Below, piece by piece: positions 8,259-64,000 of a stretch of 64,000 nucleotides of DNA; positions within the stretch are counted from its first letter, which is position 1; every line of letters begins with the position of its first letter. The stretch is taken from positions 17,889 through 81,888 of IMG/VR virus record IMGVR_UViG_3300021512_000003. One strand, written 5' to 3'. The position numbers were made by a program, and so were the translations under genes. This stretch comes from a virus. The notes below the pieces were generated by a model that saw nothing but the letters and a program-made list of their open reading frames with translations, made no database searches and was not told the origin of the DNA.

Positions 8259-9614
8259 ATGGCTCTTGAAGATATTGTACAGGTATCTATAAGCCTAGAG
8301 ACAAGTGCTGTGAGCAGGGCTGGATTTGGGATTCCCATTTTTATCAGTGCGCACAATTGGTTCACAGAACGAGTTAGAACATACACAAACTTAGTAGGAC
8401 TAGAGGCAGACATCCCTGCTGGCTCTGAAGAGCATACAGCAGCTAGTGCTTTCTTCTCTCAGTCACCAGCTCCTTCTCAGATCAAAGTAGGGCGAAGAGA
8501 GGTAGACTTAATAACCTTCACACCTTCTGCTGCTACGGCTACAGGGCAAGTTTATACTATCACTGTTGTGGGTACAGATGATGTAGCTGTTGTTGCTACC
8601 TTCACAACATCTACAGGATCTGAGACAGCCGCAGACATTGTAACAGACCTTAAGGCAGATTTGAGTGGTATCGTTGGTGTCACTGTTGCAGGTACTACAA
8701 CTCTAACACTTTCTAAGTCAGGTTCCACTGCATTCAGTGTTAACACTTTGAAGCGTCTTGCAGACGCATACACTGTTACAGAGACTGCTGCTGCAGGACT
8801 CTCTGCGATTGAAGCTGTAGATTCCGACTTCTACTTCATCACAGCACACGACCACACAGAGGCCTACATCCTAAGTATGGCAGCTGCAGTAGAGGCAAAA
8901 GAGAAGCTATACTTTGTCTCTAGTCAAGATGTGAATGGGTTGGCTACCTTGGCCGTTCCTGCTACAGATACACTGGGCAAACTCACTGATCTTAACTACT
9001 TCCGAACAGCAAGTATGTTCCACCAGACAGCAGACACTACCTTCCCTGAGTGTGCTTTTGTGGGTAAGGGTGGGCCTTATGAACCAGGAACTATCACTTG
9101 GGCTAATAAGCAATTAGCTGGTGTAGCCTTTGGAATTAACCCAACTTCTCTCAATGTACTCTCAGCAACAGAGCTAAACAACCTTCAAGCAAGGAATGCT
9201 AATGTTGTTATTAGGACAGGCGGCATACCCATTACAAGGGAAGGTCGTGTTGTAGGTGGTGGTAGTGGTCTTGGTGAGTGGATTGATGTTATTCGTAGTA
9301 GGGATTTACTTATTGCAAGGATCAGAGAGGCATACCAGAACAAACTAATCAACGCTCCTAAAGTGTCTTACACGGATAACGGGATAGCGGAGATGCGAGG
9401 GGTTCTAACCACCACTCTTAACCGCTACGTATCTACAGAAGCTTCGCCAAACATCCTGAGAGAGAATGATCCCTACACCACTAATTTCCCACGAGCAGCT
9501 GATGTATCACTTGCTGAGAAAAGTGCTAGTAAGCTTACAGGCTCATTCACAGCTATCTTAGCTGGTGCCATCCACGTTGTTGTCGTCACTGGCACACTTG
9601 CACTTGTAGATTAA
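8259..9614 (+). CDS. tail sheath protein (DUF3383-like)
   Basis: MALEDIVQVSI..AGFGIP, PGTITWANKQLAGV, EWIDVIR, KVSYTDNG and AGAIH motifs. Confidence 0.9.
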   Translation: MALEDIVQVSISLETSAVSRAGFGIPIFISAHNWFTERVRTYTNLVGLEADIPAGSEEHTAASAFFSQSPAPSQIKVGRREVDLITFTPSAATATGQVYTITVVGTDDVAVVATFTTSTGSETAADIVTDLKADLSGIVGVTVAGTTTLTLSKSGSTAFSVNTLKRLADAYTVTETAAAGLSAIEAVDSDFYFITAHDHTEAYILSMAAAVEAKEKLYFVSSQDVNGLATLAVPATDTLGKLTDLNYFRTASMFHQTADTTFPECAFVGKGGPYEPGTITWANKQLAGVAFGINPTSLNVLSATELNNLQARNANVVIRTGGIPITREGRVVGGGSGLGEWIDVIRSRDLLIARIREAYQNKLINAPKVSYTDNGIAEMRGVLTTTLNRYVSTEASPNILRENDPYTTNFPRAADVSLAEKSASKLTGSFTAILAGAIHVVVVTGTLALVD

Positions 9615-18106: not shown

Positions 18107-19558
18107 ATGGCTGGACTGAGTAGTGACGGTTTAACTATAAAAAGATTACCAGAGATTATTGATGAAATAACTACCTCCGAAAGGAATAACATTTCTTCTA
18201 ACATCTCAACAGAAGATGATGAAGTCTTAGGACAACTAAACAACATTATTGGAACGTCTCTTGCAGAGCTTTGGGAGCTAGTTGAGTCAGTTAATGACAA
18301 CTTTAATGTAGATAAGGCAGAAGGTAGAAACTTAGACGACCTTGCAGCCTTAGTAGGTATTTCTCGGATTGCTGCCTTAAAGACAACAGGCTCTGCAAGA
18401 TTTACCGGAGTTGACGGCTCTGTAGTCCCTCTTGGAGCTTTAGCACAGAACCCTGTGAGTCTTGATAGGTTTCTAACAACAGAGGTGGTGAACATACAAG
18501 CAACTGCTTGCTATGCTGCAACTATAACACCAGCACAAGTGTTAGACTCTACCTTGTATCGACTCACTATCAACACAACAGATTACGATTTCACCACCAC
18601 TGGCTCTGCAACGGATGTTCAGATCATACAAGGACTACAGGGGCTTATTGCTGTAGATACAGCAGCAACATGGATAGCAACACTAAACACAGAGAGTACA
18701 CTCCTAACAATAACAACAGATGATCCTAATGACATCTCTATTATAACCACCACGCTATTGACAGCAGATAGCGTTACGGTAGACGGTAGTATAGAGGCAG
18801 AGATTGCAGGGGCTGTTATTGCTCCTCCCAACTCAGTGATCTCTGTAGTGAGTAGTGTTGCTGGATGGGATGAAGTTACTAACCCAGAAGCCTTGACTGC
18901 AGGCAGAGCAGAAGAGTTAGACGAAGAGCTTAGGCTCCGTATAAGGGTGAGTCAGCAGATCAATGGTCTCTCTACAGTAGATGCTATTGAAGATGTAGTG
19001 TCCACTGTAGCAGGGGTGTCTAGTGTTCAGGTGATTGAGAATGTCACTCTCGTAACAGACGCTTTCGGAAGACCCGCTAAGAGCTTTGAGACGCTTGTAG
19101 ACGGCGGTACAGACTTAGACGTAGCTCAGGCTATATGGGTCTCAAAAGCAGCAGGAATAGCCACGTATGGAGGCTTAAGCGTAAGTGTTATTGATAGTAA
19201 GGGAAGACAGCGTGATGTTAACTTCTCAAGACCAGAAGACATCTACCTTGCCTTTAGGATAACCTATAGTTTGTATGATGAGGAAACCTTTCCAACAGAG
19301 GGTGAGCAGGCTATAAAAGATGCTGTTGTTGCTACAACCTCCCTACTACAACTAGACGAGGATGTAATCCCCTCTAGGTATTACGGCCCAATCTACAATG
19401 CTGTATCTGGTATTGATTCCTTAACTGTAGAAGTGCAAGCACTGGTTAACCAAGGTGACACCCCTTCAGGTGGTTCTTGGCAAACTACAAAACTTGCTAT
19501 ATCGTTTAACGGTAGAGGGACTACAGTAGACACAGATATAACAATAGTAGCGGTGTAG
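18107..19558 (+). CDS. baseplate J-like wedge protein
   Basis: AEGRNLDDLAAL, VTNP..LTAGRAEELDEELRLR and KAAGIATYG motifs. Confidence 0.9.
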   Translation: MAGLSSDGLTIKRLPEIIDEITTSERNNISSNISTEDDEVLGQLNNIIGTSLAELWELVESVNDNFNVDKAEGRNLDDLAALVGISRIAALKTTGSARFTGVDGSVVPLGALAQNPVSLDRFLTTEVVNIQATACYAATITPAQVLDSTLYRLTINTTDYDFTTTGSATDVQIIQGLQGLIAVDTAATWIATLNTESTLLTITTDDPNDISIITTTLLTADSVTVDGSIEAEIAGAVIAPPNSVISVVSSVAGWDEVTNPEALTAGRAEELDEELRLRIRVSQQINGLSTVDAIEDVVSTVAGVSSVQVIENVTLVTDAFGRPAKSFETLVDGGTDLDVAQAIWVSKAAGIATYGGLSVSVIDSKGRQRDVNFSRPEDIYLAFRITYSLYDEETFPTEGEQAIKDAVVATTSLLQLDEDVIPSRYYGPIYNAVSGIDSLTVEVQALVNQGDTPSGGSWQTTKLAISFNGRGTTVDTDITIVAV

Positions 19559-30961: not shown

Positions 30962-31018
30962 TAACCTTTTGATTTCATCAGTATGACTTTGTGTAGTCTG
31001 TATAGTCCAGTGTTATAA
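30962..31018 (+). other. attI-like site A (IHF box plus simple site ending G/TTATAA)
   Basis: 30968-31016 is identical to 57401-57449 (49 bp); GTT at 31012 heads array 1; IHF consensus at 30962-30974. Confidence 0.7.
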
Positions 31019-31218
31019 ATAATAACCAAGAACCTAGGAGGTTCTAAATACGAAACCAATAAACCACCTAAACTATAAAACGATTGAGAAAGACCTCAAC
31101 CAAGCACTACAATCCCACATCTCTTACGAAGATTGGATGGAGTTTATTGTAAGACTTGTAGGCGGCTCGGAAGACATCTACCAGATCAACTACATACTTC
31201 CAACCAGTGCTGGTATTA

Positions 31219-31431
31219 CTACAGAAGTTCCGCTTGCAGAAGCAACTTCTTTATACGTGGGTATAATTCGTCTTGTTGCTCCTCCGCAAGTGTGAGTACA
31301 TCCCTGAAAACTTGCTTATCCTCACTACCGTCTGCAAGGAGGATTTTGGGGACGAGGAGGTAATCTACCTCTCCATTGATATGCCTCTTTATGTTGTCCA
31401 GAACTCCTTGAAGTAAAAGTGTATCTATCAT
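31219..31431 (-). CDS. cassette gene, hypothetical
   Basis: 70 aa with a GAGG RBS, between site A and attC 31458. Confidence 0.55.
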   Translation of the reverse strand: MIDTLLLQGVLDNIKRHINGEVDYLLVPKILLADGSEDKQVFRDVLTLAEEQQDELYPRIKKLLLQAELL

Positions 31432-31457
31432 ATCTCTGTCCTCTTATCTAAAATTAT

Positions 31458-31515
31458 TTCTAACAAGTTAATGTTGTCGGAATTGCTACGCAATCCGCAA
31501 ATTAAGACGTTATGT
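31458..31515 (+). repeat. attC-like site
   Basis: TTCTAAC AAGTTAATGTTG..ATTGC TAC GCAAT..CAAATTAAGAC GTTATGT hairpin. Confidence 0.8.
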
Positions 31516-31516
31516 G

Positions 31517-31891
31517 TCAGTACTGCTCTCTCATTTGCTGTCGAAGTTGCACAATTTCATTCTTCAGCTTCTCATTTTCCTCCACCAAATCTTGATTCAA
31601 GTCTTTAACTACCTCATCCTTATGGTTGGAGTAAATAGCTTGGCGCAACTCCTTGTAATCATACGTGTGGTTAGCCCTCCCCCCACGGTATCCTTTAAAT
31701 CCATCCATCAAGGCGTTTCGGTAATTTGTCCAGTGATCAGAGTCAACGTAATAACTGACATCAGTATATAAATCGCCCAATACCTCATTCATCAAAGCTA
31801 CAAGTTTGGGTTTAAAGCTGTCCATTATTTTCTGTGCTTCTTCTTTCCCTTGCTCTGTAAGTTCTGGGTATAAAGGATAATCTTCACTCAT
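31517..31891 (-). CDS. cassette gene, hypothetical phage protein
   Basis: 124 aa; unit bounded by GTTATGTG and CACATAAC. Confidence 0.7.
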   Translation of the reverse strand: MSEDYPLYPELTEQGKEEAQKIMDSFKPKLVALMNEVLGDLYTDVSYYVDSDHWTNYRNALMDGFKGYRGGRANHTYDYKELRQAIYSNHKDEVVKDLNQDLVEENEKLKNEIVQLRQQMREQY

Positions 31892-31914
31892 TTTAATCTC
31901 TCCCGTTTAATCGC

Positions 31915-31978
31915 ACATAACAAAGCACTGAAAAATCGGACTGGCAGAAGAGCCAGCCACTTACAATAGGCGCTATAC
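31915..31978 (+). repeat. degenerate attC-like site (R' GTT changed to GCT)
   Basis: ACATAAC AAAGC...CTGGC..GCCAG...AGGC GCTATAC. Confidence 0.6.
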
Positions 31979-31997
31979 AGCCGCCTGTTACTAACAC

Positions 31998-39427: not shown

Positions 39428-39484
39428 TAAGTGCTTGATTTTACTCCTACGACCTTGCGTAGTCTGTATAGTCCAGTGTTATAA
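39428..39484 (+). other. attI-like site B
   Basis: Ungapped match to sites A and C with identical core GTAGTCTGTATAGTCCAGTGTTAT; GTT at 39478; IHF consensus at 39428-39440. Confidence 0.7.
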
Positions 39485-39486
39485 AC

Positions 39487-39687
39487 CTAATCATTGTTAG
39501 GTTTTGGCTTAAAGTCACCATCAGCATCGCAATGCTCAGGTGGCCACCCATGCTTTCTAATATTCATCGCTCTAAGCGGATACTTTATTAAATACCTATA
39601 GAGCGTCTCAAGCATTAACCCAATACCCACAATAATAAAAAATGTAAGAACTGGACTGTCGCTCATAAATTCATAAATTGTTGTCAT
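39487..39687 (-). CDS. cassette gene, small membrane protein
   Basis: One TM helix, then HGWPPEHCDADGDF; unit ends GTTATAAACC and GGTTTATAAC. Confidence 0.7.
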   Translation of the reverse strand: MTTIYEFMSDSPVLTFFIIVGIGLMLETLYRYLIKYPLRAMNIRKHGWPPEHCDADGDFKPKPNND

Positions 39688-39709
39688 ATCTATGGCCTGT
39701 TAAGTCGGT

Positions 39710-39781
39710 TTATAACAAAGCAGTCAAGCTGACAGTCTCTACGCTGCGCTTCGTTCCTGCCGCTTACTTATTGCGTTATGT
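39710..39781 (+). repeat. attC-like site
   Basis: TTATAAC AAAGC AGTCAAGC...GCTTACT TATTGC GTTATGT; extra C in L''. Confidence 0.9.
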
Positions 39782-40468
39782 TGCACTAATTCTATCTTGT
39801 GCAATCTTAAAGTATTCTTCATCTAGCTCAATGCCAATAAACTTACGACCAAGGTTTTTACAAGCTACGCCTGTGCTACCGCTACCTAAAAACGGGTCGA
39901 GTATTGTTGCACCTTTATCACTAAACTTTATCAATAGGTATTCCAATAAATCAACTGGCTTTTGTGTTGGGTGTAATTTATTGCCAGTTCTATTGAACTT
40001 TAAAATATTAGGATCACGCTTACCGTTTATAAGTCTACGTCCTTTCTGTATAAAAATAATCATTTCATACTTTGGTGCAAAGTCGGCTTTTAAATCACCC
40101 ATACTAGTGTTGTTCTTTTCCCATATAAGTATATTCTTTATTTTAAATTTTTGCTCTAGTGCTTGCTTGAATTTATCAATATTATGAAAGCTACAAAAAA
40201 CATAATGCGCCGTATTGTCCGCAGCAACTCTAAATAATTCATCAATCCAAACATCAAGCCATCTTAAGTCTTTATCGTTTTTTATCTTACTGTATTTCTC
40301 AATCCTATAGTTACTCTGAAACTCCATACCATATGGCGGGTCGGTCAATATCATATCAACTGAACCATCAGGTATTTCTTTCATTCTTTCTAAGCAGTCT
40401 CCTTGCATCAACCAAGGATTTAGATCTTCTTTTTCTATATCTGCTAGTCGTTCATTTTTGTAGTGCAT
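39776..40468 (-). CDS. cassette-borne DNA adenine methyltransferase (N6/N4 family, beta class)
   Basis: TDPPY, HPTQKP and LDPFLGSGST; stop codon lies inside the attC GTTA. Confidence 0.92.
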   Translation of the reverse strand: MHYKNERLADIEKEDLNPWLMQGDCLERMKEIPDGSVDMILTDPPYGMEFQSNYRIEKYSKIKNDKDLRWLDVWIDELFRVAADNTAHYVFCSFHNIDKFKQALEQKFKIKNILIWEKNNTSMGDLKADFAPKYEMIIFIQKGRRLINGKRDPNILKFNRTGNKLHPTQKPVDLLEYLLIKFSDKGATILDPFLGSGSTGVACKNLGRKFIGIELDEEYFKIAQDRISAT

Positions 40469-40493
40469 TTTAATCTTTCCTTTAGTTCGTGCA

Positions 40494-40569
40494 ATATAAC
40501 AACAATTTCAAAAAGACACGTACAGTTTGTTCCAAACGTGCCCTTAGCATTTTAAATTAAGGGTTATGT
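40494..40569 (+). repeat. attC-like site
   Basis: ATATAAC AACAA TTTCAAAA..CACGT..ACGTG..TTTTAAA TTAAGG GTTATGT. Confidence 0.75.
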
Positions 40570-40584
40570 TACTAAACCAAGCGT

Positions 40585-40973
40585 TTACCAACTACATAAA
40601 TCATGCTGTTTATTTAGAGAGTGCATCTCTACATCTTCGCACGTCTCAATATCAAACATTCCAATATGGCAATCACTTGGCTCAATATTTAAAGTCTCAG
40701 CTAGCCATTTGTATGCTTCTTTTCTTTTCATATCTCCAAATTTCCATAATGGATCAAAGGCTCTATGCGCTGCGCTTTTTGCTTTTCTTAGCTCTTTATT
40801 TGCCAACCTACCTAATGGCTTTGTTGTTCCTTTGTGTGTACCAACGTAGGCATCACAACCAACACAAGAGTAAAAACTCAAGCTAAATAAATCCTTTCGG
40901 TGTGGGTAAACTTCCTTTCCTGTAACTGCCTTTGAGAATTGTTTGCAGTATGGGCATGTTGGTGTCAAATTCA
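40585..40973 (-). CDS. cassette gene, zinc-finger protein (DUF3268-like)
   Basis: CPYC, C..CDAYVGTH, PLGRLA, AH.AFDPLW and CHIGMFD; start MNLTPTCPYC. Confidence 0.8.
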
Positions 40974-41000
40974 TTCTATCAATCCTTTTTAGTGGTGGTA

Positions 41001-41073
41001 ACATAACAAGGTTTTCAAAGCGGACACATTACAGCGTACCGCTTTCATTTAGCCGTTTAAAACGAGGTTAGGT
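41001..41073 (+). repeat. attC-like site
   Basis: ACATAAC AAGGT TTTCAAAG CGGAC...GCCG TTTAAAA CGAG GTTAGGT. Confidence 0.8.
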
Positions 41074-41099
41074 TGCAAAAACAACATTTAAGTTGTCCA

Positions 41100-41297
41100 T
41101 TAAGTGACTGAACGAATATCCAGACTTTTCATGCTTTTTATGTAAAGAACTCTCATACCAGTCGCCATCTCCATTGCAACCTTTAATTCTGCATTATTAG
41201 GCTCGAATCTTGAGTATAAGATAGTATAATCACCATTCAATTCAGGAGAACTCTTACTATTGAGTATAACTTTCTCGCCTGCTTTAAATTTAGCCAT
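41100..41297 (-). CDS. cassette gene, hypothetical
   Basis: MAKFKAGEKVIL; 65 aa. Confidence 0.6.
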   Translation of the reverse strand: MAKFKAGEKVILNSKSSPELNGDYTILYSRFEPNNAELKVAMEMATGMRVLYIKSMKSLDIRSVT

Positions 41298-41323
41298 AGA
41301 ATAACCCCTTTAATTTAACAGCA

Positions 41324-41382
41324 GCCTAACAAGGCTGCTGTTTTGGAAGCGCTGAAGCGCTCCACAAAGCTTTACGTTATAT
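41324..41382 (+). repeat. attC-like site
   Basis: GCCTAAC...TGGAAGCGC TGAA GCGCTCCA...GTTATAT; near-identical to 57689-57747. Confidence 0.85.
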
Positions 41383-41609
41383 GTAATAAGTGTCCACACA
41401 AACTTCAGCATGAATGTGTATCTGGTCTTTTCCACATCTCTATCTAAACCATCTTAAACAGTCGTATACTTAAACCCCCTCACAACAAACCGGACACCCT
41501 TGTGAGGTTAAGCGGTAGCCCACCAAGGAGGAGGGCAAGCACTCAAACTTTACTTACGATTAACACTCAGTTCTGTGGTGGCAATAACTGACCAACCACA
41601 GGAAAGCAT

Positions 41610-41708
41610 ATGGACCCAATTAGCATCATCCTCACCCTTAAAGTCGCAACCCTATCCGTTGCGCTAGTTACTGAACTCGTCAAGCTGTATAAAGAACTTA
41701 GTAAGTAA
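41610..41708 (+). CDS. 32-aa hydrophobic peptide, candidate type I toxin (TisB-like pattern)
   Basis: MDPISIILTLKVATLSVALVTELVKLYKELSK; AGGA RBS inside a stem; structured leader. Confidence 0.55.
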   Translation: MDPISIILTLKVATLSVALVTELVKLYKELSK

Positions 41709-41843
41709 CTAACAATTAGAGTGCAGTACCAAAGATAATCTATAAAACGGTTTCAGAATCCAACTGAATAAAATGGAGTTTAAAATAAATCTTAAATCAG
41801 TAGCGTCTTATCCTCCTTGAGTTTGGCGCTCATTAAATATTAC

Positions 41844-41915
41844 ATCTAACAATCACATTAAGTCACTTCGTTCGGACTGTCGCTGACGCGTCAGCCGCTT
41901 ATGTGGGCGTTATAT
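41844..41915 (+). repeat. attC-like site
   Basis: ATCTAAC AATCACATTAAG..CGGACTG..CAGCCG CTTATGTG GGC GTTATAT. Confidence 0.8.
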
Positions 41916-42172
41916 CACTCATCCACCCATAAAAGCTTTTTAGTTATTCTGGTTTCAGTCACTTCTTTAGAGGTCTCAATGATCTCTGATTTTGTTTTGA
42001 ACATCACGAACAGCCTCTCAAGCTCTGCGTCGAGTGCTGCATCAAAAATATCACTCATCCCATGATCGGTGGCGTAGTCGCGCATACAAAGGAGTTCTAT
42101 GGTGTAATCTCCCAGCTCACACCCGTCAAGGTGCGCGTATTCGGTCAGAATGTTGTATCTATCTTCGTTCAA
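41915..42172 (-). CDS. cassette gene, hypothetical
   Basis: GGAGG RBS, TTG start, 85 aa. Confidence 0.65.
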   Translation of the reverse strand: MNEDRYNILTEYAHLDGCELGDYTIELLCMRDYATDHGMSDIFDAALDAELERLFVMFKTKSEIIETSKEVTETRITKKLLWVDE

Positions 42173-42185
42173 AATAACCTCCGTA

Positions 42186-42241
42186 ATCTAACAATCAATT
42201 TAAACCGGATTGCTACGCAACCGCTTAATTGAGCGTTATAA
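42186..42241 (+). repeat. attC-like site
   Basis: ATCTAAC AATCAATTTAAACCGGATTGC TAC GCAACCGCTTAATTGAGC GTTATAA; near-identical to 58787-58842. Confidence 0.9.
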
Positions 42242-42250
42242 GGCTTAGCC

Positions 42251-42502
42251 CTAATTCTCTTTCTCCCAATTCCTTTCGCCTTTTTCAAAGGCAACAGCGA
42301 TGTCCAGCACCTCTCTCACGGTTTTTCCGTACTGGTGCTGCGAAGGAAGGCTGAATATCTCAACAGGTACTTTTTCCATACCTGGTTGGCTTCCAATCAA
42401 AGAGTTTTGTTGTATTTTAACGCCACATCCCTCACCTGTGCCGTCTTCCACTAGCATACGCTCTATAAAGTCGATGCGGTCTTTGTCTGTAATTTCGCTC
42501 AT
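42251..42502 (-). CDS. cassette gene, hypothetical phage protein
   Basis: ITDKDRIDFIE...TVREVLDIA; unit ends GTTATAAGGC and GCCTTATAAC. Confidence 0.7.
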   Translation of the reverse strand: MSEITDKDRIDFIERMLVEDGTGEGCGVKIQQNSLIGSQPGMEKVPVEIFSLPSQHQYGKTVREVLDIAVAFEKGERNWEKEN

Positions 42503-42529
42503 GTTTATATCCTTGGTAGGTAAATCGCC

Positions 42530-42586
42530 TTATAACAAGGCATTGCAGCGGACGCGCTCTGCGCGCCGCATAGTTTTGCGTTAGCT
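42530..42586 (+). repeat. attC-like site
   Basis: TTATAAC AAGGC ATTGCAGCGGACGCGC TCT GCGCGCCGCATAGTTTTGC GTTAGCT. Confidence 0.85.
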
Positions 42587-42780
42587 ATCATTAATTACTC
42601 TACGCACTGCACACAATTTATCCCCGACAACGATGTAGCCCGCTTTTATCCGTTGTGTAAACTGGGCGCGTTGCACTCCGATTGCTCGCGCAAATGCGCT
42701 TTGATTCCTTTGAAAGTTTCGGCTATAAAGTCGGCCAGCCTTTTCAGCCCGTCCGCTTTGCATTTTTCGCTAGGTTTCAT
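42581..42780 (-). pseudogene. Cro-like HTH gene, apparently frameshifted
   Basis: MKPSEK..LADFIAETFKG in one frame continues as NQSAFARAIGVQRAQ..GYIVVGDKL in another. Confidence 0.5.
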
Positions 42781-42986
42781 AGTAGATTAGAGTCGATATA
42801 TTCCTGCGCTTCATCCTTGGAAGCGAAGGTGAGCGCACCTTTTTCATCGCTCACATCAGCTCGCGCAATCGAATCATATATTAAAAACGGCCCTGCAAAA
42901 TCAAACCGCCAAAGCCGAGTTGGGTGAAACCTGCATTCCATAACCCAACCCCCTATGTTGTCTGCGTTGCAAATTTCGTGACTCAT
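42777..42986 (-). CDS. cassette gene, hypothetical
   Basis: GAGGAG RBS; C-terminal FASKDEAQEYID. Confidence 0.6.
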   Translation of the reverse strand: MSHEICNADNIGGWVMECRFHPTRLWRFDFAGPFLIYDSIARADVSDEKGALTFASKDEAQEYIDSNLL

Positions 42987-43034
42987 GTTGTTTCTCCTCA
43001 GCGCCTTCGGGTCACTCCCTTAGCTCATGTATGT

Positions 43035-43063
43035 ATAGTAATATACACCCCACACACTGTCAA
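43035..43063 (-). promoter_or_regulatory. sigma70-type promoter inside a cassette
   Basis: TTGACA-17 bp-TACTAT on the minus strand. Confidence 0.7.
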
Positions 43064-43093
43064 CGAAATGCTATACAAATAATCAAATAAAAT

Positions 43094-43155
43094 AGCTAAC
43101 AAAGCAACTCAAATCCGACTCCGCTGGCGCTTGCGGTTTAGCTGAGGCGTTATGT
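43094..43155 (+). repeat. attC-like site
   Basis: AGCTAAC AAAGC AACTCAAATCCGAC...GCGGTTTAGCTGAGGC GTTATGT; extra C and extra A on the left arm. Confidence 0.9.
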
Positions 43156-43350
43156 GGAAAAACAGGCCTCAAGGGCATCTAAATACTGTGGTAAATTCTC
43201 ATAGTTTCCCGTAAGCTCAGCCGTCTTCCTTTCACTAGCGACTGCTCTTGCTGATGAGAGAACGCGGAGCACTTGATGGCTGGTTCCGCCCTGCCAGCTT
43301 AGTGCTTTTATAGCCTCTTCCAAAAACGGATCTTGTTTATTATTTGTCAT
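43150..43350 (-). CDS. cassette gene, hypothetical
   Basis: 66 aa (ALSWQGGT); stop codon inside the attC GTTA. Confidence 0.65.
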   Translation of the reverse strand: MTNNKQDPFLEEAIKALSWQGGTSHQVLRVLSSARAVASERKTAELTGNYENLPQYLDALEACFST

Positions 43351-43387
43351 ATAGATATACCTATAGTTTATTTGTGGTTATAAATTC

Positions 43388-43428
43388 ACATAACAAGGCA
43401 GTCAAGCAGACTGCTGAAAGCGTTGCTT
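43388..43428 (+). repeat. truncated attC-like site (left arm only) ending array 2
   Basis: ACATAAC AAGGC AGTCAAGC AGAC matches the left arm of 39710; no L' partner. Confidence 0.65.
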
Positions 43429-57394: not shown

Positions 57395-57451
57395 TAAGTG
57401 TTTGATTTCATCAGTATGACTTTGTGTAGTCTGTATAGTCCAGTGTTATGT
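57395..57451 (+). other. attI-like site C
   Basis: 49 bp identical to site A; GTT at 57445 heads array 3; IHF consensus at 57395-57407. Confidence 0.7.
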
Positions 57452-57454
57452 GGC

Positions 57455-57664
57455 TTATTGGTTATCCACTTTCACAGTAATAGCGCCATCCAGTGTTATG
57501 CAGTATCTTTCAAGCCCAAGGGAGACTCTGTATTCTGGGTAGCCTTTTCTTAGGCACTCAGCCTCTGTGTAAATTGCTACTGGCGGAATAATGAAGGCGC
57601 AATACAATATGAGTAAGACGGCTGGTGTAACGACAGCTAGTATTATCTTTTCGATTAAAATCAT
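57455..57664 (-). CDS. cassette gene, small membrane protein
   Basis: TM helix, then ECLRKGYPE..YC. Confidence 0.65.
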   Translation of the reverse strand: MILIEKIILAVVTPAVLLILYCAFIIPPVAIYTEAECLRKGYPEYRVSLGLERYCITLDGAITVKVDNQ

Positions 57665-57688
57665 ATCTTTCTCCGGAGATAAAGCACC

Positions 57689-57747
57689 TCATAACAAGGT
57701 GCTGTTTTGGAAGCGCTGAAGCGCTCCACAAAGCTTTAGTGTTATAA
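57689..57747 (+). repeat. attC-like site
   Basis: TCATAAC...GCGC TGAA GCGC...GTTATAA; near-identical to 41324-41382. Confidence 0.85.
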
Positions 57748-58095
57748 AACTCGATAGGCATGGTAGTAACCAGCCGCGCGTCTTTTAAATGTGCCGATCG
57801 TGGTAATATGCAGTTTTCCAGCGTTAAATTCATTACCATCTGGATCAACCCAGCGGCGAGTATAAAAAACTCGCTCTAGGTACCTCCCTGGCTTGTGTAT
57901 GTCGACCACCTTTAAAATCATTTCCCCGATTCCTTCAGCAACAAGCTCATGATCTCCTGAAGCGGTCGGCTCACTTTTGCACCCTGGAATCCATACGTAA
58001 TCCGAGTAATATTCACCAGTAACGGCATACCATTCATGGGTTCCCGTATAAAACGGGAATTTAACTCTAATATGCTGCCCATTGTGCAATTCCAT
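57742..58095 (-). CDS. cassette gene, hypothetical phage protein
   Basis: GGAGGAG RBS before MELHNGQ; RVFYTRRWVDPDG; stop codon inside GTTA. Confidence 0.7.
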   Translation of the reverse strand: MELHNGQHIRVKFPFYTGTHEWYAVTGEYYSDYVWIPGCKSEPTASGDHELVAEGIGEMILKVVDIHKPGRYLERVFYTRRWVDPDGNEFNAGKLHITTIGTFKRRAAGYYHAYRVL

Positions 58096-58112
58096 AACTC
58101 CTCCAAATCGTT

Positions 58113-58178
58113 TTATAACAAGGCGTTTCACGCAGACCGCGCAAAGTGACGCGCGACTGGTGAACTTAGTCGTTAGTT
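58113..58178 (+). repeat. attC-like site
   Basis: TTATAAC AAGGC GTTTCACGCAGACCGCGC...GCGCGACTGGTGAAC TTAGTC GTTAGTT. Confidence 0.85.
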
Positions 58179-58373
58179 TGCTTCGTTATCTATTTGAATT
58201 TTCATTTTTACCCCCCTATACGTAAATTCCGATGGCTCGGTATCTTTGCCTTTTGCAGCGGTGAAGGACTCAAGAAATAAATCCAGACCAAAAACATTAA
58301 GCCCAGCATCCAATATTGCCTGCCCAGTTATACCGGTATTTTTATTGCTCCTTGTGAATTTATTTTGTGACAT
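58173..58373 (-). CDS. cassette gene, hypothetical
   Basis: 66 aa; stop codon inside GTTA. Confidence 0.6.
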   Translation of the reverse strand: MSQNKFTRSNKNTGITGQAILDAGLNVFGLDLFLESFTAAKGKDTEPSEFTYRGVKMKIQIDNEAN

Positions 58374-58402
58374 TTGGTGTTACTCCGTAGGTATTACTGG
58401 CA

Positions 58403-58464
58403 ACCTAACAGTCGCATTAAAATCTAACTTCGCTGGCGCTTCGCAGTTTATGCGAGCGTTAGAG
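58403..58464 (+). repeat. attC-like site
   Basis: ACCTAAC AGTCGCATTAAAA...GTTTATGCGAGC GTTAGAG. Confidence 0.8.
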
Positions 58465-58761
58465 TGCTAAACAGTCTCTTATTTGCTTAGCCTTGCTTTC
58501 CTGCCCTTTTGTGAATGCTCTTCCTTTTTGAACCTCAATGACCCCTAGTATTTCTTCGGCTGTGAATTGCTCTATGCACTCGTCGTCTGATCGGAAGGCG
58601 CATTCTCCATCGAAGGAGATTTTAAGAAATTTGGTAAGATGACATTGTATCGTCGTCATCGCCCCCTCCGCTAAACTCCACACCACCACACTGAAACTGT
58701 CGCTGCTGTAAGCAGTTCGCCCTCCGCCACCGGGTTTTTTAGCGGTTCGTTCTAATCTCAT
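58459..58761 (-). CDS. cassette gene, hypothetical
   Basis: 100 aa with a GGAG RBS; stop codon inside GTTA. Confidence 0.65.
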   Translation of the reverse strand: MRLERTAKKPGGGGRTAYSSDSFSVVVWSLAEGAMTTIQCHLTKFLKISFDGECAFRSDDECIEQFTAEEILGVIEVQKGRAFTKGQESKAKQIRDCLAL

Positions 58762-58786
58762 AATCCCTGCTCCTTGTTTAGCCGTA

Positions 58787-58842
58787 ATCTAACAATCAAT
58801 TTAATTCGGATTGCTACGCAACCATTTAGTTGAGCGTTATAA
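58787..58842 (+). repeat. attC-like site
   Basis: Near-identical to 42186-42241. Confidence 0.85.
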
Positions 58843-59040
58843 GCTTGGTTCCGGCTTGCTATTAGCTTTCATCTCCTCTCGCTTAACGCAGTGTGCCGGA
58901 ACGTTAATCTCTATCTGCACCATCTGCTCATTGAAATCCACGCCGACTATCTTCCCGACCACACCATTAACTATTACGCGCTCGTGGTGCTTAACGCCTT
59001 CGTCTAAAATGTTTTTGGCTCTAATTGTTTGGCCTATCAT
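58837..59040 (-). CDS. cassette gene, hypothetical
   Basis: 67 aa with an AGGAG RBS; stop codon inside GTTA. Confidence 0.6.
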   Translation of the reverse strand: MIGQTIRAKNILDEGVKHHERVIVNGVVGKIVGVDFNEQMVQIEINVPAHCVKREEMKANSKPEPSL

Positions 59041-59064
59041 TTCGTTCTCCTGTCTCTGCGAGGG

Positions 59065-59286
59065 TTATGTTCTAAATGTTAGCCCACAAATAATTGCGAT
59101 AATAGAACTAATAATTACAACATTTACAACACGGTTGTTCCTCTCCCGACGATTTTTTTTTGCGAAGTCCTGTGCGTAGCTTAATTCCTGTTTAGTTACA
59201 GGTGTGCCAAGTTTTATGGCTTGGCGTATAGAGAAAAAACTTTTCACTACTGCCACTCCAATATTAAAATAAACATAACAAAGCAC
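59065..59286 (-). CDS. cassette gene, small membrane protein (start uncertain)
   Basis: Unit bounded by GTTATGTT (59064) and AACATAAC (59272-59279). Confidence 0.5.
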   Translation of the reverse strand: MLCYVYFNIGVAVVKSFFSIRQAIKLGTPVTKQELSYAQDFAKKNRRERNNRVVNVVIISSIIAIICGLTFRT

Positions 59287-59305
59287 TTAAAAATCAGACT
59301 GTCTT
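59273..59305 (+). repeat. truncated attC-like site ending array 3
   Basis: ACATAACAAAGCACTTAAAAATCAGACTG matches the left arm of 31915; no right arm. Confidence 0.6.
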
Positions 59306-59323
59306 CAACTACAAACTACACAG

Positions 59324-59542
59324 TCACTTCCTCGCAACACGCTTATAGTGTGCATTGGTTTTGTTAGTTTTTACCTTCTTCTTTGAAGTTAAGTGCCACA
59401 ACCCACACGCAGTACACGCATACGGTGCTAGGTTTTTTGCTTCCCAACGATAAGACCTTGACTTAAACTTCACAGAGACACAAAGGATCTTTACATAAAA
59501 CCTCGCATCTTTCTTTGTTTGAAAGACTATCTTATTGCACAT
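59324..59542 (-). CDS. small basic zinc-binding protein
   Basis: MCNK..F.TK..A and PYACTACGLWHLTS. Confidence 0.65.
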   Translation of the reverse strand: MCNKIVFQTKKDARFYVKILCVSVKFKSRSYRWEAKNLAPYACTACGLWHLTSKKKVKTNKTNAHYKRVARK

Positions 59543-62256: not shown

Positions 62257-62315
62257 TTATAACAGACTATTAAAACCGACTGCGCTGACGCTTGCGGTTT
62301 ATGGCTACGTTATAT
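62257..62315 (+). repeat. attC-like site (isolated)
   Basis: TTATAAC AGACT ATTAAAACCGACTGCG..CGCTTGCGGTTTATGGCTAC GTTATAT. Confidence 0.8.
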
Positions 62316-63946: not shown

Positions 63947-64000
63947 ACATAACAAGGCCATTAAATCCGACAGCGTAGCTGCGGTTTATGGCTACGTTAT
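63947..64000 (+). repeat. attC-like site at the window edge
   Basis: ACATAAC AAGGCCATTAAATCCGACAGC GTA GCTGCGGTTTATGGCTAC GTTAT; right arm identical to that of 62257. Confidence 0.85.

Follow-up and report, generated by a model that had tools for sequence, protein, structure and literature searches.

Phage-borne integron-type cassettes whose genes appear to lie on the attC bottom strand and to be read toward the entry site

On which strand of attC do the genes of phage-borne cassettes lie, and by what might they be read? The question is raised by array A (39.5-43.4 kb), a series of small genes separated by attC-like hairpins in a stretch of viral DNA of 64,000 nucleotides, called the window here, which corresponds to bases 17889-81888 of the record IMGVR_UViG_3300021512_000003. 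This source record is an 81,888-bp IMG/VR phage with direct terminal repeats, rated complete; coordinates marked "genome" refer to it, all others to the window. A sequence-only reading of the window had placed the attC top strand on plus, the entry sites at the left of the arrays and the cassette genes on minus, pointing toward the entry site. We put at roughly 0.7 the probability that these are genuine phage-borne integron cassettes of a class coded on the bottom strand of attC and read by phage operons. The evidence concerns first the strand of the sites, then that of the genes, and finally the behaviour of both in other viruses.

Strand of the attC sites and of the cassette genes

The motif pair TAACAA..GCGTTA occurs eight times in the window against 0.15 expected, and six of the occurrences are attC-like hairpins between small genes; the overlapping matches at 18705 and 18711 are not attC-like. 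The record holds 21 distinct attC-type sites, 15 of them within the window and either aligned or supported by our covariance model, and the TAAC and GTTA boxes are invariant in all 21 aligned candidate sites. The model, R1, was built from 14 plus-strand phage sites, which form a cleaner alignment. The consensus fold of these 14 consists of an R box, an L box and an inner stem with one unpaired base in the 5' arm, and seven of its 14 pairs carry changes on both sides (covariation). The sites are imperfect inverted repeats with R''/R' and paired L boxes, as integron attC sites are. With at least two attCs and no integron integrase nearby, the arrays belong with the clusters of attC sites lacking an integron integrase (CALINs). 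They do not amount to a complete integron, as the whole 81,888-bp record gave no match to the tyrosine recombinase family PF00589 and the cassette genes are read toward the entry site. Rfam at gathering thresholds returned no match in the window, a null that is uninformative because, to our knowledge, Rfam contains no attC family.

The sequence-only reading had proposed that the strand be called by an attC covariance model and that the extrahelical bases be located by folding, and both were done. Run on the whole phage with filters off, R1 gave 31 matches at E<=10, and the 20 matches with E<0.1 are all on plus. Site B1 (57692-57744) reached only E=1, and site A2 (40497-40566) was not reported by R1 and was accepted from the 21-candidate alignment. 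The calibration set consisted of 12 bacterial 20-kb loci on the cassette side of intI, with integrases found by TIGR02249. Within one class, 147 of 401 genomes have a match to this model above the cut-off, a tally that includes the unpublished genomes G042, G311, G299 and G144, from none of which the calibration loci come. On the bacterial loci R1 gave 40 hits in 10 of the 12, a polarity-matched likeness to attCs beside integron integrases: all 40 point away from intI, 29/29 on plus where intI is on minus at the left and 11/11 on minus where intI is on plus at the right. Since R1 hits point away from intI in bacterial arrays, plus in the phage is the canonical top strand, and the original placement of the top strand on plus is borne out.

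Folding leads to the same assignment. In the well-folding phage sites, three bases (T, A, A/G) bulge out of the 3' arm of the minus-strand fold, which makes them extrahelical bases on one arm, the feature that defines a bottom strand; the full hairpin is the minimum-energy structure in three of the eight folded sites. The available text of Nivina et al. 2016 (PMC5027507) describes bottom-strand extrahelical bases near L'', which are G16, A20 and T24 in attCoxa2, and folding of the bottom strand as the substrate, with strand selectivity. The bulges on the 3' arm, placed as in that text, agree with minus as the bottom strand.

Had the strand been miscalled, minus would be the attC top strand and these would be ordinary cassettes with a stop in R''. 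attC sites are near-palindromic, and the minus reading of gene, stop in a TAAC box and hairpin does resemble an ordinary cassette. Complementarity of cassette ends does not help to choose: bases on the R'' side pair with the start of their own cassette at 8.8 of 12 positions, whereas with the start of the following cassette they do so at 5.7 of 12 (n=18, p=4e-4). The difference is real, yet it was rejected as a test of strand because both strand models predict such pairing. What does discriminate speaks against a miscall. R1 points away from intI at 40 of 40 sites, with the adjacent bacterial genes on the same strand at 38 of 40 and opposed at none, and in the phage it has no minus-strand match at E<0.1. 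The bulged bases sit on the 3' arm of the minus strand, as in the bottom strands of PMC5027507 to the extent that its available text describes them. Finally, seven copies of a leader (four in the phage, three in metagenomes) abut seven different cassettes at G|TTA, and one leader next to seven cassettes is to be expected of an entry site at the left and not of an attC that ends an array. We therefore consider a miscalled strand very improbable.

The coding strand was assessed with a codon-usage likelihood test trained on the phage's 22 open reading frames (ORFs) of at least 250 amino acids (aa). All 17 minus cassette ORFs in the window score as in-frame coding; among ten competing plus ORFs, nine score as antisense or out of frame and the 32-aa ORF at 41610-41708 scores about 0. 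External support exists for three minus ORFs, 39776-40468 and 40585-41004 from Pfam and 57742-58095 from 28 homologs, and four minus cassette ORFs have PHROG matches at E<1e-6. We then tallied the gene left of each attC, using per-locus codon models. The 21 phage sites comprise 17 reversed, two ordinary (F1 and F2), one without a call (A5) and one at the record edge, compared with 38 ordinary, none reversed and two without a call among the 40 bacterial sites (Fisher p=1e-12). As 17 of 21 sites have a bottom-strand gene and only F1 and F2 are ordinary, the phage cassettes as a set are not of the ordinary, Pc-read kind. An ORF-length rule for the coding strand left many cases ambiguous and miscalled two bacterial cassettes with ORFs running into attC; it was replaced by the codon models.

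The claim that every cassette ORF is on minus stands within the window (17/17) and fails outside it, in array F (genome 4870-6083), which has two plus ORFs. Within the window the cassette genes do point toward the entry site, and their position on minus in itself makes the bottom strand non-template. The search for inverted cassettes in bacterial integrons that had been recommended gave 0/40 reversed in the arrays examined.

Stop codons often fall inside the R' box, as had been noticed from the letters. Genome-wide, 8 of 21 R' boxes are used as a stop, against 4 of 137 other GTTA in the leftward-transcribed parts (Fisher p=9e-6); stop use of other GTTA over the whole genome is 10/390. Eight ORFs in the window had been said to stop in the complement of a GTTA. 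For seven of them, with ends at 39776, 42581, 43150, 57742, 58173, 58459 and 58837, the end is the first T of an attC R' TTA and the TAA is its complement; the eighth, with its end at 59065, stops at a lone GGGTTATG, an orphan R'-like box where no attC was detected. Outside the window a further R' stop lies at genome 7785. As crossover takes place between G and TT, the R' TTA constitutes the first three bases of the cassette, and therefore, in the circular form, the stop lies in the cassette's own R' box. A stop in R' mirrors the familiar stop in R'' of ordinary cassettes, and this familiar form is present in cassette F1, whose plus ORF ends in the TAA of R''.

Entry site, mobility and expression of the cassettes

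The conserved attI-like leader of array A lies at 39435-39478 on plus and ends in G|TTA. The leader recurs on plus before array C (30969-31012), before array B (57402-57445) and, outside the window, before array F (genome 4825-4868); the 24-nt core occurs in four copies, all on plus, each ending in G|TTA and followed immediately by a cassette. A 20-nt core had no exact match in IMG/VR. A metagenome scan with a 17-nt core matched 23 stretches, of which 15 were inspected; the whole leader of about 44-49 bp is present in three of these (L064, L066 and L076), and the other 12 look like chance matches. In each of the three, a different cassette follows G|TTA, with its attC on plus and, on minus, an ORF for which the junction TTA supplies the stop; the first-cassette ORF of L066 encodes an N6 methylase with 35% identity to that of cassette A2. 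The location of entry sites at the left of the arrays, also part of the initial claim, is thus upheld by a leader that abuts seven different cassettes at G|TTA.

To the left of the leader in L064, L066 and L076 is a small minus gene, homologous (32% identity, E=1e-12) to the 97-aa gene that the phage has at genome 4532-4825. Beyond the small gene in these relatives, two genes from the leader, stands a 392-aa tyrosine recombinase (L066 4803-5981, L076 28-1206), which matches PF00589 only, TIGR02249 not being among its hits, and beyond the recombinase are ordinary bacterial genes, the element, at whose edge the recombinase lies, being integrated next to dus and transaldolase genes. A recombinase and then bacterial genes beside the leader indicate that the relatives are integrated elements in bacterial contigs. 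The leader overlaps the ribosome-binding site and start of the small basic protein gene (97-105 aa) at phage genome 4825-4868 and in the three metagenome contigs; at the window's three leader copies the small basic gene is absent and the leader alone remains.

Public runs containing the array are hydrothermal-vent metagenomes only. Contigs of two other vent runs hold single array A cassettes in other contexts. Cassette A1 has its breakpoints there at 39478 and 39784, with the 3' arm of a different attC before it and another cassette after 39784. The context of array A breaks likewise at the attC edges 41846/7, 41912/3 and 42189, and one contig (run X3) joins 43399 to 39478. Judged from these junctions and from the pairing of cassette ends, the cassettes appear to be discrete mobile units that change partners at G|TT. 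In the probable source run, assembly unitigs break at or near attC sites and at the leader.

These junctions also bear on the proposal that the hairpins are intercistronic terminators of the phage, or RNA-stabilising stem-loops, that resemble attC and are not integrase substrates. Each minus-strand hairpin comes after a gene and is followed by a T-rich TTGTTA, and the phage has no integrase; these points count in favour of the proposal. However, cassette-sized units swap partners exactly at G|TT, and the R and L boxes, the bulges and the covariation match attC. R1 finds 40 sites in 10 of 12 integrase-flanking arrays, yet none in 17 non-integron loci with homologs of a cassette gene. Moreover, attCs of Pseudoalteromonas phage H101 are recombined by IntI1, according to the available text of Qi et al. 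2023 (PMC9892861). We find terminators or stabilising stem-loops hardly credible as a full account of these sites.

How the cassettes might be expressed can be approached from their layout. The in-window cassette genes are co-oriented with every flanking phage gene, and in most in-window cassettes the ORF starts 16-32 nt from the R'' of the same cassette, the exception being 42581-43149 with about 110 nt. A gap of 16-32 nt leaves room for a ribosome-binding site, not for a promoter. Co-orientation together with the lack of promoter room makes read-through from phage promoters the economical reading, and on the strength of this layout the cassettes are most likely transcribed within the phage's own operons toward the entry site. 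Scans of 37.5-45 kb found 14 sigma-70 promoters where 17 were expected and seven terminators where five were expected, both at background level. Array F, in a divergent or rightward region, has plus genes. The earlier suggestion that the cassettes are built to be read by the leftward operons of this phage is favoured by co-orientation, by the 16-32 nt gaps and by array F; its restriction to this phage is too narrow, because the same reversal is found in unrelated viral contigs and a general cause is needed.

Reversal in other viruses and its possible causes

Phage H101 has four R1 hits at 75918-77988, all on plus, and 14 of the 14 annotated features of its 73.5-80.5 kb region are on minus; the codon test scores 4/4 of its attCs as reversed. 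H101 also has a repeated leader of its own, of about 90 nt, before plus ORFs in two cassettes (L086 2479-2560 and 3879-3968). Tetrasphaera phage TJE1 is ordinary, with three R1 hits on plus and orf1-3 on plus, and Polaribacter phage P12002L gave no R1 hit. A scan of IMG/VR with a degenerate attC pattern yielded at least 80 loci, and R1 supports 47 sites in 36 of them at E<=0.01. Among the matches listed, 27 of these 47 sites are reversed, three are ordinary, four are without a call and 13 are without a codon model; counted by locus, 20 are reversed and two ordinary (Fisher test against bacteria, p=6e-16; binomial test against one half, p=8e-6). In seven loci that were inspected, the R' TTA provides the stop of a minus ORF at 8 of 15 attCs. 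The multi-site arrays that are convincing by eye are reversed in L090, L115, L129, L133, L156 and L160 and ordinary in L162. Elsewhere, L108 shows a clear attC between minus-sense genes, and L098 is ordinary. From these comparisons, the bottom-strand-coded class appears to occur commonly among viral sequences, and rarely or not at all among the integron arrays of bacteria.

The methylase of cassette A2 shares 72-74% DNA identity with Vibrio and Pseudoalteromonas phage methylases, and in Vibrio phage 1.168.O, Pseudoalteromonas phage HS5 and Vibrio phage K359 the gene stands beside terminase, portal or head genes with no attC nearby; a plasmid search for it gave distant matches only. For the 117-aa family (57742-58095), R1 found no attC at seven bacterial and ten viral loci, with one weak hit at E=0.06, and by this survey the family seems to reside mostly outside cassettes. 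As both the methylase and the 117-aa family are found outside cassettes in phages or bacterial loci, the cargo looks phage-derived.

Several points weigh against our reading. R1 and the IMG/VR pattern were both derived from this phage, and weak single hits may be false. Of the IMG/VR sites, 13 of 47 could not be scored, and a terminator-like hairpin with a T-rich minus-strand tail could bias weak hits in the same direction. Reversal is not obligatory, array F and phage TJE1 being ordinary, and some cassettes here and in H101 also hold a plus ORF behind a repeated leader. At 20 viral loci with a related primase, no attC was found near that gene and no leader motif, and the arrays are therefore recent or lineage-specific. 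Read-through from phage promoters is something we infer from layout only. Lastly, the proposed movement in trans presupposes a putative host integrase.

One could also suppose that there is no phage class at all and that reversal is the product of a filter at a fixed entry site: the leader forces the attC top strand onto plus, and leftward transcription retains, from the bacterial cassettes, the minority whose gene is by chance on the bottom strand. The four leader copies are all on plus, three of them in leftward units with minus genes and the fourth at a divergent point with two plus genes, as such a filter would have it, and insertion of cassettes at secondary sites without strand bias is described in the available text of bioRxiv 10.1101/2022.09.11.507474. 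However, the leaderless arrays D, E and G are equally reversed, and the degenerate attC at genome 9552-9613 lies inverted, on minus, behind a plus gene, so that the reversal is preserved. Unrelated viral contigs that do not have this leader are reversed at 27 of 30 resolved sites among the matches listed, and random insertion followed by an expression filter, acting on a bacterial pool with 0/40 reversed, would give mostly ordinary polarity. The orientation of the entry site alone cannot explain the reversal, and we judge the filter improbable.

A different account sets the orientation by the rate of recombination. If the bottom strand is both the non-template strand and the template of the lagging strand, it would often be single-stranded, would fold easily and would be exchanged faster within one infection cycle. 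The geometry fits the strand of the sites, the R1 calibration and the coding strand; bottom-strand folding and strand selectivity are described in the available text of PMC5027507, and cassette contexts differ between vent samples. Against this account, folding, replication direction and exchange rate are all assumed, and GC skew, which tracks transcription, indicates no origin. As a self-standing explanation we think it unlikely, with rather more in its favour than the filter, and it could coexist with bottom-strand-coded phage cassettes read by phage operons, as their cause. More generally, the reversal may stem from exposure of the bottom strand, from a bottom-sense hairpin in the mRNA or from the mode of cassette origin.

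The arrays in detail and their place among integrons

Array A consists of nine cassettes. Cassette A1 (39479-39775, minus) has an ORF at 39487-39687 (66 aa) with a codon log-likelihood ratio (LLR) of +13.3, and its own attC at 39713-39778 is on plus (R1 E=0.00029). Cassette A2 (39776-40563, minus) carries an N6/N4 DNA methyltransferase ORF at 39776-40468 on minus (Pfam PF01555, 8e-42; phrog_67), whose stop is the complement of the A1 R' TTA, and its attC lies at 40497-40566. Cassette A3 (40564-41067, minus) has a DUF3268 ORF at 40585-41004 (PF11672, 7e-38) and an attC at 41004-41070 (R1 E=0.0028); cassette A4 (41068-41376, minus) has an ORF at 41100-41297 (65 aa, LLR +12.5) and an attC at 41327-41379 (R1 E=0.081). 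The coding strand of cassette A5 (41377-41909) is without a call, there being no minus ORF of at least 50 aa; its attC at 41847-41912 is matched by R1 at E=1.6e-7. A5 has long flanks and only the 32-aa plus ORF at 41610-41708, which is hydrophobic. Cassette A6 (41910-42235, minus) contains an ORF at 41915-42172 (85 aa, LLR +19.6) and an attC at 42189-42238 (R1 E=3e-12). In cassette A7 (42236-42580, minus), with its attC at 42533-42583 (R1 E=3.5e-8), the minus ORF at 42251-42502 (83 aa) has an LLR of +24.2, against -22.3 for a 94-aa plus ORF.

Cassette A8 (42581-43149, minus) has ORFs at 42581-42763 (60 aa, with its stop in the R' TTA) and 42777-42986 (69 aa), an attC at 43097-43152 and a match to phrog_10103 at 5e-7. 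It is the sole two-gene cassette, and a sigma-70-like site with 10 of 12 matching positions lies upstream at 43063-43035; A8 may be a self-expressed gene pair. Cassette A9 (43150-43428, minus) has an ORF at 43150-43350 that stops in the R' TTA and ends in a short, weak, attC-like terminal site at 43392-43428 (R1 11.9 bits, E=3.3).

The first four cassettes of array B, B1-B4, span 57446-58836 on minus, with ORFs at 57455-57664, 57742-58095, 58173-58373 and 58459-58761, all with positive LLRs; their attCs at 57692-57744, 58116-58175, 58406-58461 and 58790-58839 are on plus and are matched by R1. The stops at 57742, 58173 and 58459 are in the R' TTA, and the ORF at 57742-58095 is the 117-aa one with 28 homologs. 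Cassettes B5 and B6 (58837-59366, minus) contain the ORFs 58837-59040, with its stop in the B4 R' TTA, and 59065-59247, with its stop at the orphan GGGTTAT; R1 found no attC between 58840 and 59366. By eye, two pairs of attCs are similar in the alignment, 41327-41379 with 57692-57744 (A4 and B1) and 42189-42238 with 58790-58839 (A6 and B4), the members of each pair belonging to different arrays and having different neighbouring genes.

Array C (31013-31990, minus) is made up of C1, with an ORF at 31219-31431 and an attC at 31461-31512, and C2, with an ORF at 31517-31891. The right ends of arrays C (31918-31990) and B (59276-59366) have a common half-site, an R''/L'' arm and stem with compensating changes; both are without a matching 3' arm and are not clean full attCs. 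In array D, attC D1 (62260-62312) is on plus (R1 E=6e-11), and a further plus-strand copy at 63950-63999 lies in the terminal repeat, where it equals genome 77-126 (R1 E=4e-10). Arrays E, F and G lie outside the window at genome 77-1347, 4870-6083 and 7734. The degenerate attC at genome 9552-9613 is on the opposite strand, directly behind the plus gene 9255-9548, with its R' decayed to ATTAG; R1 scores it at only 14.5 bits, on minus. A second repeated leader, palindromic and with a ribosome-binding site (GAACCTAGGAGGTTC), is found at genome 6518-6545, 6866-6893 and 7192-7219 and in the window at 31024-31050. The leader bearing GAACCTAGGAGGTTC precedes small plus ORFs that face minus ORFs in the same units, and the C1 copy has lost its ATG.

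The gene blocks of the window lie on plus at 1-23 kb, on minus at 24-44 kb, on plus at 44-56 kb and on minus at 56-64 kb. The window encodes a protein of primase-helicase size and a ClpP-like protease, and the 20 viral loci with a related primase show 43-64% identity. Outside the window, at genome 1398-4517, the large subunit of ribonucleotide reductase is split by an intein that contains a LAGLIDADG domain. Compared with phage records by megablast, the 30-50 kb region gave no match.

Compared with ordinary integron cassettes, those of the phage have the same R''/L''/L'/R' organisation, bulges, G|TT crossover and pairing ends, and are likewise compact single-gene units with a stop in an R box. 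The gene of an ordinary cassette occupies the top strand and is read from Pc at attI (38/40 here, none reversed), whereas that of a phage cassette lies on the bottom strand, is read in the direction of the entry site and has its stop in R', not in R''. Chromosomal integrons contain a minority of reverse-oriented cassettes with internal promoters, such as toxin-antitoxin cassettes. In these too the gene is antisense to the array and attC keeps the orientation of the array. The phage cassettes differ from them in that nearly all are reversed, that most have a 16-32 nt gap and that a promoter-like site is present only in 42581-43149.

attC clusters in phages are already known. The available text of Qi et al. 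2023 (PMC9892861) reports attC arrays in lytic-type phages without intI, with methyltransferase cargo and with H101/PH101 attCs recombined by IntI1. In the same text the cassettes of H101 and TJE1 are said to have the orientation usual in bacterial arrays, and reversal goes unmentioned, the figures and supplements of the paper lying outside this comparison. The present arrays resemble these phage CALINs in being attC clusters without intI that carry methyltransferases; they differ, as far as that text goes, in having at least 21 sites in at least six arrays, a conserved attI-like leader and systematic bottom-strand coding, the last of which is common to H101 and not to TJE1. A second system for comparison is attG insertion, which the available text of bioRxiv 10.1101/2022.09.11.507474 describes as IntI-catalysed and outside the integron platform, with resident promoters and later excision, at short GWT motifs without strand bias. 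Here, unlike at attG sites as described there, a single conserved leader of about 44-49 bp stands at the head of four arrays and recurs beside a homologous small gene in integrated elements. In full-text searches of the literature we found no systematic reversal of gene against attC in phages, no stop in R' and no leader shared with integrated elements; the figures and supplements of Qi et al. 2023 may bear on the orientation in H101. The systematic reversal, the stop in R' and the conserved attI-like leader shared with integrated elements appear to be what is new here.

We propose that these are genuine integron-type cassettes in phage-borne attC clusters without an integrase, probably moved in trans by a host integron integrase. 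The arrays would keep the normal geometry, with an attI-like leader at the left and the attC top strand pointing away from it, and would be filled by a class of cassette with its gene on the attC bottom strand. Such a gene would start, in most cases, 16-32 nt from the cassette's own R'' and would end at the cassette's first bases or within about 35 nt of them, often through the complement of the R' TTA. Most of these cassettes, with no room for a promoter of their own, would be transcribed in phage operons toward the entry site, and the recombinogenic bottom strand would be the non-template strand. In a bacterial integron a reversed cassette would face Pc and stay unexpressed, an expectation in keeping with PMC5027507. 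Phages seem to maintain a separate pool of cassettes, which contains methyltransferases and other genes of phage type.

Taken further, phages might possess their own widespread economy of bottom-strand-coded cassettes, exchanged through host integrases at phage attI-like sites and read by phage operons, with a polarity that exposes single-stranded DNA for fast exchange and leaves the genes unexpressed if a bacterial integron captures them. We offer this extension tentatively; it is less probable than the bottom-strand class itself, although we hold it somewhat likelier than recombination rate acting alone. With cargo of phage type (methylases and small unknown proteins), phages may also be a source of new cassettes.

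Strand selectivity, which orients promoterless genes for Pc, is the basis of the integron model. If our reading is true, phages would use host integrases for accessory genes of their own, and polarity would functionally separate the phage and bacterial cassette pools. The arrays would also be a natural test case for the origin of cassettes and for the control of attC folding by transcription and replication. A cultured system with the same layout, phage H101 on Pseudoalteromonas marina, makes these ideas testable at the bench.

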